64,000 bases of DNA from an uncultured Pseudomonadota bacterium (lineage in GTDB: Bacteria; Pseudomonadota; Alphaproteobacteria; Rs-D84): assembly GCA_902801125.1 (NCBI GenBank), contig CADCGT010000001.1, positions 16,637 through 80,636 on the forward strand, given 5' to 3'. Each line of letters opens with the position of its first letter. Within the stretch, counting starts at the first letter, position 1. Of this stretch, positions 56,259 to 63,038 are shown piece by piece. Under the pieces are notes generated by a model. The model ran no database searches. It was given only the letters and a program-made list of their open reading frames with translations, and had not been told where the DNA came from. Position numbers and translations under genes: made by a program.

Positions 56259-56612
56259 AAATATAATGCCAATCCAAAGTGCGCATACGCAAATTATGGT
56301 TATCATAACAATTGCACTGCCTATATCTTTGGCCTTTTTTGACAAGGGGTGTATTTCCGGACCGATTCTGTCTATTATGGTTTCGATTGCGGTGTTAATC
56401 ATTTCCGCAATAATTATGAACACCAAAGAAAACAACATTATTATGCGCGACAACCCCGATACATCAAGAAAACACAATAACACAGTGGCCAAAACACATA
56501 AAAATATATCTTGGCGAAATGCAGATTCTGATTTATATGTGGCAATTATGCCATCGATTGAATGCATAAATGCATGAAATATTCTGCGCAGCCCCGTTTC
56601 GTTCGATTTCAT
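56250..56612 (-). CDS. dgkA: Diacylglycerol kinase
   Basis: ESAFR, EMINTAIE..ID, KKAKDIGSA. Confidence 0.93.
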   Translation of the reverse strand: MKSNETGLRRIFHAFMHSIDGIIATYKSESAFRQDIFLCVLATVLLCFLDVSGLSRIIMLFSLVFIIIAEMINTAIETIIDRIGPEIHPLSKKAKDIGSAIVMITIICVCALWIGIIFLE

Positions 56613-58009
56613 TTTTTATCCTTTCCCGTGGCAAGTTGATAATACAGGTCGTTTTTTTGTTCCATCATGGATTGTAATTCTTGGTCGGAAAATCGTTCGC
56701 GTAAAGTTTTTGTTCCTTGGCAAGCGGTATCCAATGACACCCCAAGGGCCATTTTGCATCCATCAATCTTGGCACCGGCGGCCGACAACATCGTTGGGAA
56801 AAAATCCATTGCGGATACGGGTCGATGTAAATCTGCGCCTTGGAAAATAGGGGTGTTTATAAATACATTGGCCAATGGTCTGTTTGATATGGTATTTAAT
56901 TTTTTCATCAACGGCCCAGAATGTTGTTTGTGGTCATTCAACAGGATTATAACCGCGGTCGGGTCCGCCGCGCGAAACCATTTTACAAAATCATAGATAA
57001 TTTTATCATCGCATTTTGTGATGTCTTGCGTGGTTTCTTGTTTGAAACCCATATTACGACAGTAATCTGTAAAGAACCCTTCCAAATGGGTGTTGATTGT
57101 TTCCATGAATATAAAATACGGTTGTTTGGATTTAATTATATCTGATAATACGGGTTTGGACCATTCAAATAAAACCCCATCATCGACACCATGAAATGGT
57201 TTTTGTTTTGGTGGGTTTTTTAATTGGGCGTATATTTTTTCGCCGTCAATTACATGGTCAAAACCCATGTGATACATAAAGGATTCTTTTTTGGAAAAAT
57301 TGCCACTTGCCGGGAAAATAGACCATGTTTGATACCCGGCGCGATTTAATATTTTGCCAATGCCGTATGCACCTGTCATTTTATCGGTGTTGCGATAACT
57401 GGTATAGAATAATGGTAATCCGGACACGAACCCGGTAATTGCCGCAATGGTGTGCGACAGGCCGGGTATAGAGTGATAATTTTCAAATGATATATTTTTT
57501 TGCTCCAATTCGGTTATGTATGGGGTCAAGACTTCGCCAAATTTTTCTTGGTCGCCATATACTTTTTCGATGCTTTCAAGTGCGATGATTAAAACATTTC
57601 TTTTTTGTGGCCATTGTATATTCACACTTTGGGGGTCGACATATTCCGTTTCATAAAAGTTTGATTTGGTAAAGTTAAAAAAACTGCCAAATTGGACATT
57701 GCGTATGGCAATCTGGATAATCATAAACGCCGTATAGCACCCAAATACAAGTAATAAAACATTGCGTCTGTATTTGAACCAATGACAAATAAACGCGCCC
57801 AATCCCGCATAAAACAGGGAACGCAAAAGAACCTTGCGAACAAAGGCCCATAAAATTTGGGAATCTGTACCACCAATGCCAGAATTTAATACTATAGCGA
57901 TTTCATCAAAATTTATTCGTCCAAATTGGCCGTATATCCATTTAACCAACCATGCAAAAAATACGATTATAAATAAAGAGATAAAAATTTTGATGAATTT
58001 TTTGTTCAT
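56609..58009 (-). CDS. Phosphoglycerol transferase/LTA-synthase family sulfatase
   Basis: N-terminal TM helices, ALESIE, HTIAA, ETINTH, LNDH, MDFFPT. Confidence 0.85.
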   Translation of the reverse strand: MNKKFIKIFISLFIIVFFAWLVKWIYGQFGRINFDEIAIVLNSGIGGTDSQILWAFVRKVLLRSLFYAGLGAFICHWFKYRRNVLLLVFGCYTAFMIIQIAIRNVQFGSFFNFTKSNFYETEYVDPQSVNIQWPQKRNVLIIALESIEKVYGDQEKFGEVLTPYITELEQKNISFENYHSIPGLSHTIAAITGFVSGLPLFYTSYRNTDKMTGAYGIGKILNRAGYQTWSIFPASGNFSKKESFMYHMGFDHVIDGEKIYAQLKNPPKQKPFHGVDDGVLFEWSKPVLSDIIKSKQPYFIFMETINTHLEGFFTDYCRNMGFKQETTQDITKCDDKIIYDFVKWFRAADPTAVIILLNDHKQHSGPLMKKLNTISNRPLANVFINTPIFQGADLHRPVSAMDFFPTMLSAAGAKIDGCKMALGVSLDTACQGTKTLRERFSDQELQSMMEQKNDLYYQLATGKDKK

Positions 58010-58173
58010 GGTGATTCCTTGGTAAATACAATAGGATTTTAATCGTAATATACTATATATTCAATAAATTTATGTCAATTATCGTTAAAAGTAAGTCCTA
58101 AAACAGGTCAGGGCGGTTTTTTACTTGATTTTTTTCCATATGTTCGTATAATTCGCCCGTGATTTTACGAATT

Positions 58174-58247
58174 GCCCTAATAGTCTAGTGGTAAAACACG
58201 TCCTTGGTAAGGACGAGTCGCAAGTCCGATTCTTGCTTAGGGCACCA
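58174..58247 (+). tRNA. tRNA-Thr(GGT)
   Basis: GCCCTAA...CGTCC-TTGGTAA-GGACG...TTAGGGCACCA. Confidence 0.95.
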
Positions 58248-58472
58248 GAAATATCCCATCTGATTTGCGTTTGTTGATTTTTGTTCGGGTCGTGTATGTC
58301 TAATACACTCCCGTCACAAGAATTGCACAATACGCATCATCTGGAACATTTCTGGCGCCCTGCGGGCACCACCCTTCGCGTCTTTGAGGCTTCATAAATG
58401 GTGTATATCGTGATACAGTTTTGTTTTCTAAATTGAAATCAGAATATGGGGCGAAATAAAAAATTATAGTGC

Positions 58473-58501
58473 TTGAAAATAATAAAATCTTGGTCTAGAA
58501 T
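58473..58501 (+). promoter_or_regulatory. Sigma70-type promoter for the aspS leader
   Basis: TTGAAA-17 bp-TAGAAT. Confidence 0.7.
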
Positions 58502-58509
58502 ACCGGAAA

Positions 58510-58684
58510 GTTTTGGCGGTTATGATGATGTGCCCAACAACCACGGAGTAATCGGCAAAACATTAAAAAAGTGATAAATTCGGGTGGCACCGCGCATAGC
58601 CAATATGCGCCCCGAAAGAGCATTAAAATAACATGGGTGCCAAAATTTCCTGGTTTTGTCGCCCAAAAAGTAAAAGGCGAAAAA
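58510..58684 (+). promoter_or_regulatory. T-box riboswitch, ultrashort stem I, translational type
   Basis: Antiterminator TTCGGG-TGGCACC-GCGCATA/TATGCGC-CCCGAA; K-turn stem I; alternative SD-sequestering helices. Confidence 0.85.
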
Positions 58685-60454
58685 ATGTTATCACTGAAAT
58701 CAAAATACAGAACACATACATGTGGTGAACTGTCGGCCAAAAATGTTGGTGAAACCGTGACACTTTCGGGCTGGGTCCATCGTAAACGCGACCATGGGTC
58801 GTTGCTGTTTATCGACCTGCGCGATAATTATGGAATTACACAGATTGTTATTGATGGCGGAAACGAGGATTTAGAACGCGTGCGCCCGGAATCTGTATTA
58901 CAGGTTGTCGGCAAGGTTGTCGCGCGTGACGCGTCCCAGGTAAATGATAAAATCCCAACCGGGGAAATTGAAATCCAGGTTGAATCTTGGAATGTTTTGA
59001 CATCAGCCGAGGTTTTGCCTTTCCAGGTTTTCGGCGATGAAGATACCAGTGAAGAATTACGGTACAAATATCGGTTCTTGGATTTGCGCCGTGAAAAATT
59101 GCATCACAATATTTTGATGCGCAACAAAATGATAAAATGGTTGCGCGATAAAATGTGGGATTTGGGATTTTCGGAATTTCAGACGCCGTTGCTTACCGCC
59201 GATTCACCCGAAGGTGCGCGCAGTTTCTTGGTTCCATCGCGTTTGCATCATGGTAAATTCTATGCGTTGCCCCAGGCCCCCCAGATGTTCAAACAATTAT
59301 TACAGGTGTCGGGTTTCGACCGGTATTTCCAAATTGCACCGTGTTTTCGTGATGAAGATTTGCGTGCAGACCGTTTGTTAGAATTCTATCAATTAGATTT
59401 AGAAATGTCTTTTGTTGATTTGCCGGATATTCAGGCCGTAGGCGAGGCGGTAATGCCGGAATTTGTGCGGACTTTTTTGCCGACGGCAAATGTATATCCG
59501 GAAATTCCACATATTTCTTTTGATGACGCGATGTTAAAATATGGGTCCGATAAGCCAGATTTGCGTAACCCGATTTTGATTTCTGATGTGACGGAAATTT
59601 TCCGTGGTTCGGATTTTGGAATCTTTGCGAACGCAATTGAAAATGGCGCCGTTGTGCGTGCAATTCCGGCCCCGAACAGCGCGGACAAACCACGTTCGTG
59701 GTTTGATAAACTTGGCGAATATGCCGTGAAAGAATTGGGGCTTGGGGGACTTGCCTATATCGTGTTTGGCGAAGAAGCCAAAGGTCCGGTTGCCAAGAAA
59801 TTGGACGAGGCAAGAATTGCGAAACTGCGCAATGTGGCCGGTGATAATTCTTCGTTGTTCTTTGTGTGCGACGCACAAGAATCGGCGGCCAAGGCGGCGG
59901 GCAGGCTGCGCAACAAATTGGGGGCAGATTTGGGTTTAATCAATGAAAACGATTTTGCGTTTTGTTGGGTTGATAATTTCCCGTTCTTTGAACCCGATGA
60001 AGAACGCGGTGGCGCACCGGCCTTTACACATAACCCATTTTCATACCCGATGGCAACATTGGAAGAATTGTCCACGCGTGACCCGTTCACGATTAAGGCG
60101 GCACAATTTGATATGGTGTTGAATGGTATGGAAATTTGCAGTGGGGGATTGCGCAACTATAACCCGGATGTTATGAAAAAATGTTTCGAAATCGCCGGTT
60201 ATCCAATAGAGGCGGTCGAAAAGAACTTTTCGGGCCTGTATACATCGTTCCAATATGGTGCGCCACCACACGGCGGGTGCGCGTTTGGTATCGAAAGACT
60301 TATTTCAGAAATTTTGGGTAATGGTGACAGTTTGCGTGAAATTGTCGCGTTCCCGGCGAACCAACGCGGACAAGATTTGCTTATGGGGTCACCAAACGAA
60401 GTTACCGAACAGCAACTGCGCGATGTGCATATTCAGGTAAGAAAGAAGAATTAG
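58685..60454 (+). CDS. aspS: Aspartyl-tRNA synthetase, probably non-discriminating
   Basis: YRTHTCG, RDHG, YALPQAPQ, FRDEDLRADR, GAPPHGG.AFG; true start MLSLK. Confidence 0.97.
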   Translation: MLSLKSKYRTHTCGELSAKNVGETVTLSGWVHRKRDHGSLLFIDLRDNYGITQIVIDGGNEDLERVRPESVLQVVGKVVARDASQVNDKIPTGEIEIQVESWNVLTSAEVLPFQVFGDEDTSEELRYKYRFLDLRREKLHHNILMRNKMIKWLRDKMWDLGFSEFQTPLLTADSPEGARSFLVPSRLHHGKFYALPQAPQMFKQLLQVSGFDRYFQIAPCFRDEDLRADRLLEFYQLDLEMSFVDLPDIQAVGEAVMPEFVRTFLPTANVYPEIPHISFDDAMLKYGSDKPDLRNPILISDVTEIFRGSDFGIFANAIENGAVVRAIPAPNSADKPRSWFDKLGEYAVKELGLGGLAYIVFGEEAKGPVAKKLDEARIAKLRNVAGDNSSLFFVCDAQESAAKAAGRLRNKLGADLGLINENDFAFCWVDNFPFFEPDEERGGAPAFTHNPFSYPMATLEELSTRDPFTIKAAQFDMVLNGMEICSGGLRNYNPDVMKKCFEIAGYPIEAVEKNFSGLYTSFQYGAPPHGGCAFGIERLISEILGNGDSLREIVAFPANQRGQDLLMGSPNEVTEQQLRDVHIQVRKKN

Positions 60455-60564
60455 GGTAGAGTGGTTAGTGTAAGTGGTTAGTGGCTAGTGGTGTCTGGAA
60501 TTATTTCGTAATTATGAAATTATGCCAGATTCTACTAACCACTAACACTCGCCACTAACACTAA
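60452..60564 (+). repeat. Heptamer-armed palindromic element, copy 7 (core 60494-60529)
   Basis: Between convergent TAG stops of aspS and the asmA-like gene. Confidence 0.95.
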
Positions 60565-63038
60565 AATTTATCATGTGTTTTTATAAATTCGCGCATAAAT
60601 GCCGGGTCAAAATATCGAAGCAATTCCGATAATGAATATTTCCGTTGGCCATTTGGCAATACGTGCAATGATACCGTCACCGGGTCAGGCGAAACCGCAC
60701 GCATGGTTATGTCAAATTTTGCATTCATCATATTGTTTGTAATATCCATAGTGCCAGTTGCGTTTGTGTGATGCATGCTAATTTCAATCGGTGATGTTGT
60801 CGTAAAATTGTTGTTTTCATATTTTCCGATAACACGCATATTCTTTAATCGGGTTGTGCCGGATTCAAGTGCGGTTATAATATTGTCTTCTAGATTGGCG
60901 CGCGTTAAATCTTGGACATTTGCGTAAAATCTATCTAGGCCAAGGCCGGTGATATACCCGCCATCAAATGTGAAATCAAGTTCGCCAATCATATTATATC
61001 GTATGTCGTGTGCGATATGACCGTGGGTCTTTAATTTTATTTCCGCCGTCATTGTTGTGTCGGATACATTTAGTGGCCAATCGCCAGATAACAATTTGCC
61101 ATTTATAACAAATTTATTTAATTGGACAAATATTTCGTATTTGGATTGTTCTTTGATAATTGTTGCCAATAAATTTCCGCGGTCATTGTCCGCAATTGAA
61201 AATGTCTGGGTACCGGATTTAAGTGAATATACAAAATTCCGGTATGCGTTTTCACCATATATCAATGTGCCCGCCGTAAGATAAATGCTGCGTGAAAAAT
61301 CAAATGGTATAAATATTGGCGAATTTGCCAAAAATTCCATTTCTTCGTATCGTTCAAAAAATTCGGGGGTGATAAATTCATCAAGGTAAAATACATCTGT
61401 CTTTAATGTGATGGAATGTGTATTCGCGGTGCCGGTAAAGGTTTGACCCGCAATTTTTATTGTTAAATCGGATATATCGCCACGGTCGTTGTAAAAACCG
61501 GTTATTATATATTCCATTTCGTTTATTGCGCGCAGGTCAATGTTCGGAAACCATTTCTTGATGTTTTTGCCGGTTATGTAAAAGAAATTATCCCGCAATG
61601 TCAAAGACCAATCGTTTGAATTTGGAATAAATGAAAATGTTTCCCCAGACCATATCATGTTCCCAACAGAATCAAGCATAAATTTGGGTAATAGTTTGCT
61701 GTGCGGTTTTATCCAAGACAATTTTTCACCGTATACATAATCGTATGTAATAGATGAATCGTTTGCGGTCTTTTTAAATACACCGCCCATGTTCGCAAAT
61801 TTAAATCTGATGGTCGCGCGCCGCGCCCCAAGGCGGGAAATGTATGATTCAAGTTCAGCCAGGTCCAAATTGCGATTCGATGAAATTGTTGCATCAAGTG
61901 TTTTTTTGTGCATTTTCAAATTTCCGGATATATCGCCGTATGTAAATTCTTGACATTCCCAATTTGAACCGCTCATGCTAAACAAACATTCGGCATTTTT
62001 ATTGTCAATTGTCGTTTTGAACATGACTTCGTGTATGCCGTCGTGGTCAATTGTGCCACCGGTGAATATCATGTTATCAGCGATGGCCTTGGTAATTTGG
62101 ATATAGTCTTTTGTTGATACCGCGTCTATCATTACATGTTCAAATCTGTGATTATTGAATGTTAAATCGCCATAGAAATCAATTTTTAATGTTGTGTCTT
62201 GCATAATTTGGTTTGGATGCGATAAAAACGAAAAATCAAACGATATATTGTCCGAAGAAAGGTTTATTGTGTGCCAACCGTTTGATTCAAGTGTAACAAA
62301 TCCCCGGACACTGTTTGCGACAATGTTTGTAAATTTGAATCCGTATCCACCATCCCAATAAAAATCTGTGGTTAGATTTACATTGTGCGTTATGCGTGGT
62401 TCAGAAAACCCAAACCAATCGTTTATTTTGTTTGTGTTTATTTCTAAAACACCCGCCGCACCGCCGGATGGAAAATATTCGCCGGTAATGTTTAATTTAA
62501 GGTTTTTGTTTTTGACGGTAAAATCGTTACCCTGGAACGCGATATCGTATTTATGTTCACTGGTTCGAACCTGGCCATCAAATGTGCCATGACTAAACAG
62601 ACCACGAATTATTCTATAATCTTTACCCATAAAGGTCATGATTGCATTTTTTACATATAATTGATATTTCACATGCAACAAGGATAGAGAATCCACATTT
62701 ATGTGTGGTTCGTATGCGGTTATAATATCGGTTATTTCGGTGTTTTCCAAATCAAACAGACCCGAAAAAGGCACTTTTATGGCCAACATTTTTGTAAATC
62801 CGTGTTCGGTTTCTACACCGTGGGCGATTAAATGTGGCGAACCCAAAATACCAAAATTTACATCGCCGTGAATCTTGGTAAGAACGCCGGTTTGGGTGAA
62901 CACCACGGATTCAAAGTGGGGACGCAATTTATTCAATGTTATAAAATTTGGCGCAAGCAACAGCCCGATGATAATAACACCCACGGTCATAATGATAATC
63001 CAAAGTGTCCGATGTGTGCGACGCGGTTTTATAATCAT
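60561..63038 (-). CDS. AsmA-like envelope protein
   Basis: N-terminal TM helix, long beta-rich body, DGGYITGLGLD near C terminus. Confidence 0.65.
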   Translation of the reverse strand: MIIKPRRTHRTLWIIIMTVGVIIIGLLLAPNFITLNKLRPHFESVVFTQTGVLTKIHGDVNFGILGSPHLIAHGVETEHGFTKMLAIKVPFSGLFDLENTEITDIITAYEPHINVDSLSLLHVKYQLYVKNAIMTFMGKDYRIIRGLFSHGTFDGQVRTSEHKYDIAFQGNDFTVKNKNLKLNITGEYFPSGGAAGVLEINTNKINDWFGFSEPRITHNVNLTTDFYWDGGYGFKFTNIVANSVRGFVTLESNGWHTINLSSDNISFDFSFLSHPNQIMQDTTLKIDFYGDLTFNNHRFEHVMIDAVSTKDYIQITKAIADNMIFTGGTIDHDGIHEVMFKTTIDNKNAECLFSMSGSNWECQEFTYGDISGNLKMHKKTLDATISSNRNLDLAELESYISRLGARRATIRFKFANMGGVFKKTANDSSITYDYVYGEKLSWIKPHSKLLPKFMLDSVGNMIWSGETFSFIPNSNDWSLTLRDNFFYITGKNIKKWFPNIDLRAINEMEYIITGFYNDRGDISDLTIKIAGQTFTGTANTHSITLKTDVFYLDEFITPEFFERYEEMEFLANSPIFIPFDFSRSIYLTAGTLIYGENAYRNFVYSLKSGTQTFSIADNDRGNLLATIIKEQSKYEIFVQLNKFVINGKLLSGDWPLNVSDTTMTAEIKLKTHGHIAHDIRYNMIGELDFTFDGGYITGLGLDRFYANVQDLTRANLEDNIITALESGTTRLKNMRVIGKYENNNFTTTSPIEISMHHTNATGTMDITNNMMNAKFDITMRAVSPDPVTVSLHVLPNGQRKYSLSELLRYFDPAFMREFIKTHDKF

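Follow-up and report, generated by a model that had tools for sequence, protein, structure and literature searches.

A minimal T-box-type tRNA sensor upstream of aspS in a gut alphaproteobacterium and its putative coupling to the ribosome-binding site

The stretch of DNA analyzed here (64,000 nucleotides of contig CADCGT010000001.1, assembly GCA_902801125.1; hereafter the window, in whose coordinates all positions are given) comes from Candidatus Enterousia, a gut bacterium of the order Rs-D84 (Alphaproteobacteria) with a genome of 0.97 Mb (969,765 bp) that is 94.9% complete. At positions 58510 to 58616, 69 nt upstream of aspS, the gene of a bacterial-type aspartate-tRNA ligase (AspRS), its sequence and predicted fold define a T-box-type tRNA sensor. 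We propose that tRNA and a downstream segment of the leader, the C box, compete for the T-box bulge of this sensor, and that the outcome is relayed through a further segment, the D box, to the Shine-Dalgarno sequence (SD), so that uncharged tRNA-Asn would turn on the translation of aspS, the only AspRS gene. We assign this reading a probability of roughly 60%. The sensor structure, the matches to the ligand, the C:D helix, and the pattern of conservation were read or computed from the sequence. All the results are computational, and the genomes used are metagenome-assembled genomes (MAGs).

Folding of 58500-58700 and of 58508-58620 with RNAfold gave the same two hairpins, stem I (58510-58561) and the antiterminator (58579-58616); in the fold of 58508-58620 the linker between them (58562-58578) was unpaired. 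The folding z-scores were -2.83 and -2.77, respectively, and in each case only 1 of 200 shuffled sequences folded as well. Stem I with its kink-turn (K-turn), the antiterminator with its bulge, the GGUGCCA motif, and the SD, all of which had been described in an earlier, sequence-only reading of this DNA, were found exactly where that reading had placed them (Table 1). In constrained folds, the lower stem ranged from 7 to 26 pairs in length, a figure inflated by A/U-rich flanks. A sigma-70-like promoter is predicted to end at 58501, 9 nt before stem I, which would put the transcript start just ahead of stem I.

The sensor structure is conserved and covaries far beyond chance in 40 orthologous leaders. 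When these 40 distinct leaders were scored on the structure of the window, 90.4% of the 960 cells were paired, compared with 36.8 to 51.5% when the partners were slid, and changes on both sides were found in 15 of the 24 sensor pairs. The covariation score was 0.482 (0.061 to 0.136 with slid partners), a value reached by none of 500 column shuffles. The both-sided changes affected all seven pairs of the K-turn C-stem, two of the four pairs of the upper helix of stem I, and, in the antiterminator, the three outer pairs of A1 and the three distal pairs of A2. Against this turnover of the helices stood a set of fixed bases. Invariant in stem I were U58526, G58527, A58528, and A58547 of the K-turn, the closing pair G58532-C58542, and A58537-C58538, with G58546 conserved in at least 90% of the leaders. 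GGGUGGCACCGCGC and GCGCCCC were present in 40 of 40 leaders, and in the linker A58574, A58576, and A58577 were invariant, while A58569, A58570, and G58571 reached at least 90%.

The apical loop of stem I carries a conserved triplet at positions 4 to 6, in which positions 5 and 6 (A and C) are invariant and position 4 is G or A. A specifier pattern parsed 70 leaders, with GAC in 55 and AAC in 15, the next base always being a purine (A in 61, G in 9). Eleven leaders dropped by the pattern and read separately comprised four of the minimal type (three GAC, one AAC), six Stem II-bearing or other relatives, and one chance motif. The overall count was thus GAC in 58 and AAC in 16 of 74 leaders, with no other codons, so the family is mostly an Asp sensor, and Asn is a lineage variant and not the family rule. 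The Asn specifier named in the sequence-only reading is therefore right for the window, where the first AAC occupies 58536-38, but does not extend to most of the family. In a tree of AspRS covering the 62 leaders for which sufficient coding sequence was available, the state at the G/A position changed at least six times, at least four of which were forced by well-supported branches; the window fell in a three-member AAC-AAC clade. The following triplet is usually an Asx codon as well (AAC in 53, GAC in 8, and AAU in 2 of 70), and 53 of the 70 loops hold Asp and Asn codons in tandem, as GAC-AAC in the genus and as AAC-GAC in sister genera. We took the first triplet as the specifier because loop positions 8 and 9 are less conserved than positions 5 and 6.

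The other end of the presumed ligand is matched too. The UGGC of the bulge is complementary to G73-C-C-A of tRNA-Asn and tRNA-Asp, C58588 being the match to G73, and the genome has a single gene each for tRNA-Asn (GUU) and tRNA-Asp (GUC), with G73 and CCA encoded in both. The K-turn, a specifier followed by a purine, and a UGGC fitting the G73 of tRNA-Asn together bear out the earlier identification of a T-box-type aspS leader.

A His in the RDHG motif marks non-discriminating AspRS, and the sequence-only reading had assigned the enzyme to that type. The gene content of the genome agrees: gatB (476 bits) and gatA (529 bits) are present, and asnS, asnA, and asnB were not found in the 94.9%-complete genome. 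By the logic of the indirect Asn-tRNA pathway, as laid out in the available part of PMC4206432, AspRS must then charge tRNA-Asn as well as tRNA-Asp. From this genomic context we infer a non-discriminating enzyme that must be the sole route to Asn-tRNA(Asn).

The element is even more reduced than the sequence-only reading had seen. That reading had noted the lack of Stem II and of a U-tailed terminator, and both points held: the distance from the 3' G·A of the K-turn to GGUGG, a stretch that is partly the 3' strand of stem I, was 30 to 37 nt (median 33) in 70 of 70 parsed leaders, and a scan of the plus strand over 58000-58800 yielded no intrinsic-terminator-like site. In addition, Stem III and the G·U pair of A2 are missing. 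Stem III is deleted in the Rfam alignment, although its flanking purines (A58569, A58570, G58571, A58574, A58576, and A58577) are kept, and the basal pair of A2 is G58592-C58610 instead of G·U in all 40 leaders, the U of the Rfam consensus aligning to C. Also absent is the distal platform of stem I (the AG bulge and distal loop, which stack on the tRNA elbow); stem I ends in the 9-nt specifier loop. According to the available part of PMC7583486, a stem I that is truncated needs Stem II, the discriminator cannot do without Stem III, which is flanked by the purine string 5'-RRRxG-Stem III-AA-3', and the rejection of 3'-aminoacyl tRNA falls chiefly to a conserved G·U pair at the A2 base. A Stem II-like insert on aspS-type genes is kept in L003, L004, and L011, from other families of the order, and in L161, from another reduced lineage, and the minimal form therefore looks derived by loss.

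Such extensive loss, of features that PMC7583486 in its available part deems necessary, together with a very low Rfam score, could mean that the T-box has decayed and no longer responds to tRNA, its hairpins serving another role, for instance, as a protein-binding operator for AspRS autoregulation or as a constitutive stabilizing leader. We regard this as improbable. The bases that have stayed invariant despite the complete turnover of the helices are those that contact tRNA, namely, positions 2 and 3 of the specifier, the purine that follows, the UGGC in the bulge, and the purines of the flanking string, and the specifier has switched only between the codons of tRNAs charged by this enzyme. 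Since the loop carries codons, not anticodons, it is not a mimic of an anticodon arm offered to the synthetase.

The proposed competition rests on the segment between the sensor and aspS. Uncharged tRNA-Asn would dock through pairing of its anticodon with the specifier and of its 3' end with the bulge. When no uncharged tRNA is at hand, the C box (GGUGCCA, 58636-42), acting as a cis mimic of the acceptor end, would pair with the entire 7-nt bulge; the D box (58653-63) would thereby be left free to cover the SD and the first bases of the AUG (58676-86), and translation would be off. With tRNA on the bulge, the C box would instead pair with the D box in the hairpin 58634-65, the ribosome site would be free, and translation would be on.

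Among 39 full leaders, 37 have a C box, which is exactly GGUGCC in 34, GGUGCU in two, and GGUGUC in one, the variants still being able to pair with the bulge through G·U. It is followed by a purine in 37 of 37 leaders, with one exception, L131, in a later set of 54 leaders, in which GGUG was invariant (54/54). In the same 54 leaders, 88.8% of the cells of the C:D helix were paired, compared with 36 to 64% when slid, and in five of the seven pairs only the D side varied. A C box that stays constant beside a drifting D box must have a second partner that is invariant as well. The bulge is one candidate, with a bulge:C box duplex of about -12 kcal/mol; in all, the leader offers the pairings C:bulge, C:3' strand, C:D, and D:SD.

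We then determined how the exposure of the SD depends on the C box, folding the leaders of 37 species with A1 and A2 enforced and the bulge blocked, and with the C box additionally blocked or not. In the window, blocking the C box lowered the unpaired probability of the SD G residues from 0.66 to 0.25, and 58653-63 paired with 58676-86 (58659-63 with 58676-80 and 58653-57 with 58682-86). Over the 37 species, the mean unpaired probability fell from 0.37 to 0.19, with a drop of more than 0.2 in 15 species and a rise of more than 0.2 in none. Blocking the neighboring 7 nt had no effect (0.38), and shuffling the D box abolished the effect (0.009 versus 0.179). Since the species are related, the p-values of this comparison overstate the case.

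The second partner of the C box could also be the 3' strand of the antiterminator, as in a classical sequestrator without any pseudoknot. In the absence of tRNA the antiterminator would open, its 3' strand GCGCCC (58607-12) would pair with GGGUGC of the C box (58635-40), and the D box would cover the SD; uncharged tRNA would stabilize A1 and A2, leaving C to pair with D and the SD open, and the bulge would do no more than bind tRNA. The GGGUGC:GCGCCC duplex, at -8 to -12 kcal/mol, comes near the values for C:bulge, and the G that precedes GGUGCC in most leaders has a possible partner in the 3' strand and in D but none in the bulge. Translational T-boxes are so described in the available part of PMC7583486, and the Stem II-bearing relatives in the same order use this scheme, L003 showing the classical pattern (SD:3' strand, -10.0; SD:bulge, -4.0). 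Nevertheless, we think it unlikely to apply here. A1 and A2 together have 13 pairs, 8 of them G-C, and by far exceed the stability of a C:3'-strand helix of 6 bp that closes a loop of about 20 nt; the minimum-free-energy (MFE) fold keeps the antiterminator pairing (A:B) formed; and positions 6 and 7 of the C box (C and a purine in 37 of 37 leaders) have no partner in the 3' strand, while they can pair with U-G of the bulge.

A further set of leaders bears on the choice between bulge and 3' strand. Eight leaders from four sister genera lack the C/D module, which two further sister-genus leaders (G077 and G148) do have. In these eight the SD itself reads GGUGCCA in three (G060, G099, and G141), GGUGUC or GGUGUU, both G·U-compatible with the bulge, in four (g14), and GGUGCA in one (G154). 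By comparison, the AAGG type is typical of the genome of the window, the usual SDs of which are AAAGG, AAGGA, and AGGAG; GGUGCC occurs at most 25 nt upstream of 1 of its 877 long open reading frames (ORFs), and GGUG[CU][CU] occurs upstream of 10 of 877. In all eight leaders, the duplex of the SD with the bulge (-7.8 to -12.8 kcal/mol) was stronger than that with the 3' strand (-6.0 to -11.8 kcal/mol), and in G060 and G154 the 3' strand of A2 is altered with no compensating change of the SD base it would pair with; both observations count against the classical scheme. The SD data of the sister genera favor the bulge as the partner. There, the SD GGUGCC would be sequestered directly by the bulge, with no relay, and comparison of the two arrangements suggests that Enterousia has kept a copy of an ancestral SD (GGGUGCCAAAAUG in G141) as its C box, GGGUGCCAAAAU.

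Control at the level of transcription or mRNA stability, with C:D as an unconventional or factor-dependent terminator or as an RNase entry site set by the state of the T-box, seems to us the least probable of the alternatives. It would accord with most known T-boxes, which attenuate transcription, and with the U-tailed T-box terminators of sister families in the order. The terminator scan described above was empty, however, and downstream of C:D comes an A-rich tract instead of a U-tract. Since C:D does not overlap the antiterminator strands, it cannot be a direct alternative to the antiterminator. Moreover, the D box is complementary to the SD region, and its shuffling removed the predicted effect on the SD, while the leaders without C/D have the T-box 59 to 72 nt before the ATG and no hairpin with a U tail.

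Several points weigh against the proposed competition of tRNA and C box. We infer tRNA binding, charge sensing, translational control, the bulge:C pseudoknot, and the D:SD helix. An element lacking Stem II, Stem III, and the G·U pair may bind tRNA weakly, miss its charging state, or need a helper, and the Rfam T-box model RF00230 aligns to 58460-58617 with only 30.3 bits, short of its gathering score of 93. The drop in SD exposure was clear in only 15 of the 37 species, the SD was mostly paired in both states in many species, and in the many with the SD GGGACC the D:SD complementarity amounts to only about three G-C pairs. The folding models cannot represent the bulge:C pseudoknot, and that pairing lies beyond a covariation test because both the bulge and the C box are invariant; GGUGC is also complementary to GCGCC of the antiterminator 3' strand. 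Leaders L028 and L049 have no C/D module, and their pairing is weak whichever partner is taken (-5.2 to -6.7 kcal/mol). The RNA evidence consists of contigs only, one of which, from run X1, begins about 100 nt upstream of the predicted promoter. Of the relay as the sequence-only reading had outlined it, the C:D helix, the invariance of the C box, the modeled SD exposure, and the SDs of the sister genera speak indirectly in its favor, and its switching by tRNA is putative.

A broader formulation, which we offer only tentatively, would be that a sensor of about 110 nt, reduced to a K-turn hairpin that holds the specifier at its apex, a linker of purines, and an antiterminator, suffices to recognize tRNA, with no need of Stem II, Stem III, the elbow platform, or the G·U pair; that its bulge doubles as an anti-SD contested by the 3' end of uncharged tRNA and by the ribosome site or its decoy; and that the tandem codons may allow a single switch to respond to the two tRNA substrates of a non-discriminating AspRS.

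The distribution of the element was determined with RF00230 and with a covariance model of our own, R1, built from alignment A2 (MAFFT, 40 distinct sensor domains). A search of the window with Rfam at the gathering threshold reported no T-box. The Rfam check proposed in the sequence-only reading came out divided: despite its score, the RF00230 match was significant (E = 5.4e-5 in a 516-nt search and 2.3e-5 across the whole genome, where it was the sole match), with the score coming almost wholly from the T-box/antiterminator part, AAUUCGGGUGGCACCGCGC...GCGCCCCGAAA. At E <= 1, RF00230 matched all 24 genomes sampled from the genus; at E <= 0.001 it recovered 59 of 107 genomes of the genus, compared with 106 of 107 with R1. 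Under strict filters, RF00230 is thus insensitive to this minimal T-box variant. R1 gave exactly one full-length match per genome in those 106 of 107 genus genomes and in 117 of 121 family genomes, including five sister genera, its only match in the genome of the window being the element described here; in other families of Rs-D84 it gave weak partial matches only.

The element was always found upstream of an AspRS-type gene, in one copy per genome. In the 25 loci with the strict core motif, aspS lay downstream in every case, at 60 to 139 nt, and among 80 aspS loci of named genomes all 19 whose AspRS was at least 75% identical had the core, which none of the 61 more distant loci had. The nearest AspRS loci (75 to 89% identity) are those of rumen and gut MAGs labeled Candidatus Enterousia, Alphaproteobacteria, or Rickettsiales, which upholds the proteobacterial host proposed from the sequence; to the other loci listed, mostly alphaproteobacterial (e.g., Rhodospirillaceae), AspRS is 53 to 59% identical. 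A host from the candidate phyla radiation/Patescibacteria, conceivable from the genome size of 0.97 Mb, is refuted by these relatives. In a sample of the class, RF00230 (E <= 0.001) found a T-box in 1 of 149 genomes outside the genus. That match (L116/L161, 55.9 bits; G267, another alphaproteobacterial family, 1.1 Mb) is a Stem II-bearing element with a short stem I whose loop contains AAC; it precedes aspS, and its genome is likewise small.

Other T-boxes were seen within the order. Those of L002, L005, and L006 (sister families f5 and f6) are of the canonical kind, having UGGU bulges, a CGUCC (G·U) 3' strand, and U-tailed terminators, and they precede an archaeal-type tyrosine-tRNA ligase (L002: RF00230, 90.4 bits; NF006330, 391 bits); Rs-D84 therefore holds at least two types of T-box. 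In L011 (G036), L157 (G148), and L158 (G154), a T-box with a short stem I sits on an archaeal-type aspartate-tRNA(Asn) ligase and not on the bacterial-type aspS (for L011, NF003483, 452 bits; L157 and L158 were judged from the N-terminal sequence alone), with the specifiers GAC, GAC, and AAC, respectively.

Of the known systems, the element is closest to the class II T-boxes of actinobacteria (ileS of Mycobacterium and Nocardia). It clearly descends from, and putatively works like, a class II translational T-box, and it lacks several structural features of T-boxes. Common to both are a short stem I with a basal K-turn and a specifier in the terminal loop, an antisequestrator with a UGGN bulge, an aminoacyl-tRNA synthetase target, and control of SD access rather than termination, which is putative here. 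Stem II-bearing relatives of the class II type stand on aspS in L003 and L004 (sister families) and L161 (another alphaproteobacterial lineage). Unlike class II, the element has no Stem II S-turn, IIA/B pseudoknot, or Stem III; the base of its A2 is G-C and not G·U; its K-turn C-stem is extended to 13 pairs; its proposed anti-SD partner is the bulge, acting via a decoy and relay, and not the 3' strand of the antisequestrator; and its host is an alphaproteobacterium, not an actinobacterium. With glyQS-type T-boxes it shares the lack of Stem II and the single-stranded linker between stem I and the discriminator, but their long stem I with an elbow platform, Stem III, G·U sensor, and transcription termination, described in the available part of PMC7583486, are all absent here.

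Recurrent switching of the specifier between GAC and AAC makes the family a natural experiment in the evolution of specifier identity, with one enzyme serving two tRNAs. A comparable case may be the Asn T-box of Clostridium acetobutylicum, reportedly (by the titles of Saad et al., 2012 JBC and 2013 PNAS) linked to tRNA-dependent amidation genes and a "two-codon T-box" that binds two tRNAs. Judged by title, it shares the indirect pathway to Asn-tRNA(Asn), and its two codons resemble the tandem codons in 53 of 70 loops here. It is said to be a full-size transcriptional T-box of a Firmicute, whereas the element here is minimal, putatively translational, and alphaproteobacterial.

According to the available part of PMC3766115, T-boxes are confined to Firmicutes, Actinobacteria, Chloroflexi, Deinococcus-Thermus, and Geobacter, and TBDB restricted the use of its class II model to Actinobacteria and to class I hits that were truncated (PMC7778990). 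Our literature search, with most subscription journals and supplements outside its reach, found no report of T-boxes in Alphaproteobacteria or the candidate phyla radiation (CPR), nor of pairing between a T-box bulge and an SD; the available part of PMC12306168, on Enterousia, does not mention a riboswitch, T-box, or tRNA. The T-box family described here is fixed throughout one family of gut Alphaproteobacteria (order Rs-D84), where it sits on a native aspS of the alphaproteobacterial type and retains only two tRNA base-pairing contacts and the K-turn. If functional, the element would be the smallest natural tRNA-sensing RNA and a useful engineering scaffold, and the structural view that a truncated stem I needs Stem II and that a discriminator needs Stem III and the G·U pair would need revision. 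Competition for the T-box bulge by an acceptor-end mimic in cis, or by the SD in its place, would, if true, link tRNA sensing to expression in a new manner.

Table 1 Features of the aspS leader and gene in the window
Feature	Position	Strand	Remarks
Sigma-70-like promoter, TTGAAA-17-TAGAAT	58473-58501	+	Consensus scan, 10/12 matches; prediction
Stem I	58510-58561	+	52 nt; MFE folds, covariation in 40 leaders
Stem I, lower helices	58510-15/58556-61 and 58517-23/58548-54	+	The latter is the K-turn C-stem
K-turn	Bulge G58524-A-U58526; tandem G58527-A58528 opposite G58546-A58547	+	
Stem I, upper helix	58529-32/58542-45	+	4 bp
Stem I, apical loop CCCAACAAC	58533-41	+	9 nt
Specifier codon AAC (Asn)	58536-38	+	Followed by purine A58539; second AAC at 58539-41
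Single-stranded purine-rich linker	58562-58578	+	AAG..A.AA conserved; in place of Stem II, IIA/B, and Stem III
Antiterminator/antisequestrator	58579-58616	+	Rfam alignment, fold, conservation
Antiterminator helix A1	58579-84/58611-16	+	
T-box bulge UGGCACC	58585-91	+	7 nt
Antiterminator helix A2, GCGCAUA/UAUGCGC	58592-98/58604-10	+	Loop 58599-603
C box GGGUGCCA	58635-58642	+	GGUGCCA 58636-42 is the exact complement of the T-box bulge; proposed decoy for the tRNA 3' end
C:D hairpin	58634-58665 (58634-39/58660-65, 58641-47/58652-58)	+	MFE; proposed ON state
D box GUUUUGUCGCC, anti-SD	58653-58663	+	Can pair with 58676-86, GGCGAAAAAAU
Ribosome-binding site AAGGCG	58674-58687	+	SD GGCG 58676-79; ATG start 58685-87
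aspS, bacterial-type aspartate-tRNA ligase	58685-60454	+	589 aa; NF001750, 723 bits (cut-off 443)

The MFE fold also contained a helix between the linker and the coding sequence, AGUGAUAA (58570-58577) with UUAUCACU (58688-58695, just past the ATG). We considered it probably incidental, because the pairing reaches 8 bp only in L001, L010, and L017; in other leaders it has 4 to 7 bp and is uncompensated. As a further pairing value, the duplex of the SD with the 3' strand in the window is -7.3 kcal/mol.

Contigs from RNA libraries of two studies bridge the leader and the coding sequence, with one of 644 nt in run X1 (58407-59049) and others in runs X2 (58566-59019) and X3 (58604-58903). These contigs do not bear on transcription, its ends, or its strand and give no support for or against a transcription start site or attenuation. 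A contig of run X2 matches the window from 58566 on and carries, upstream of that position, a different stem I with a loop of the GAC-AAC type, an indication that a relative with an Asp specifier co-occurs in that sample.

From an in-frame GTG at 58571, an ORF of 627 aa (58571-60454, plus strand) extends across the antiterminator into aspS. The match to NF001750 starts at residue 7 of AspRS as read from the ATG, and the distance from the T-box to the ATG varies among species by non-multiples of three (101, 103, 104, 105, 109, 110, and so on); for these two reasons, we take the part of the ORF upstream of the ATG at 58685 as noncoding. Automatic annotation could call the riboswitch as coding through this GTG.

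The neighboring genes were also inspected. An 825-aa ORF convergent with aspS (60561-63038, minus strand) had no NCBIfam match at E <= 0.001, and a 466-aa ORF (56609-58009, minus strand) showed a weak likeness (82 to 84 bits, far below the cut-offs) to phosphoglycerol transferase/LtaS-type sulfatase-fold enzymes. A tRNA-Thr gene (GGU) lies at 58174-58247 on the plus strand, about 260 nt upstream of stem I, and the 3' end of the same tRNA precedes the leader in L026, L027, L029, L047, L150, and L151, so the synteny of tRNA-Thr and aspS is conserved in several relatives. Read-through from the tRNA-Thr gene into the leader is possible.

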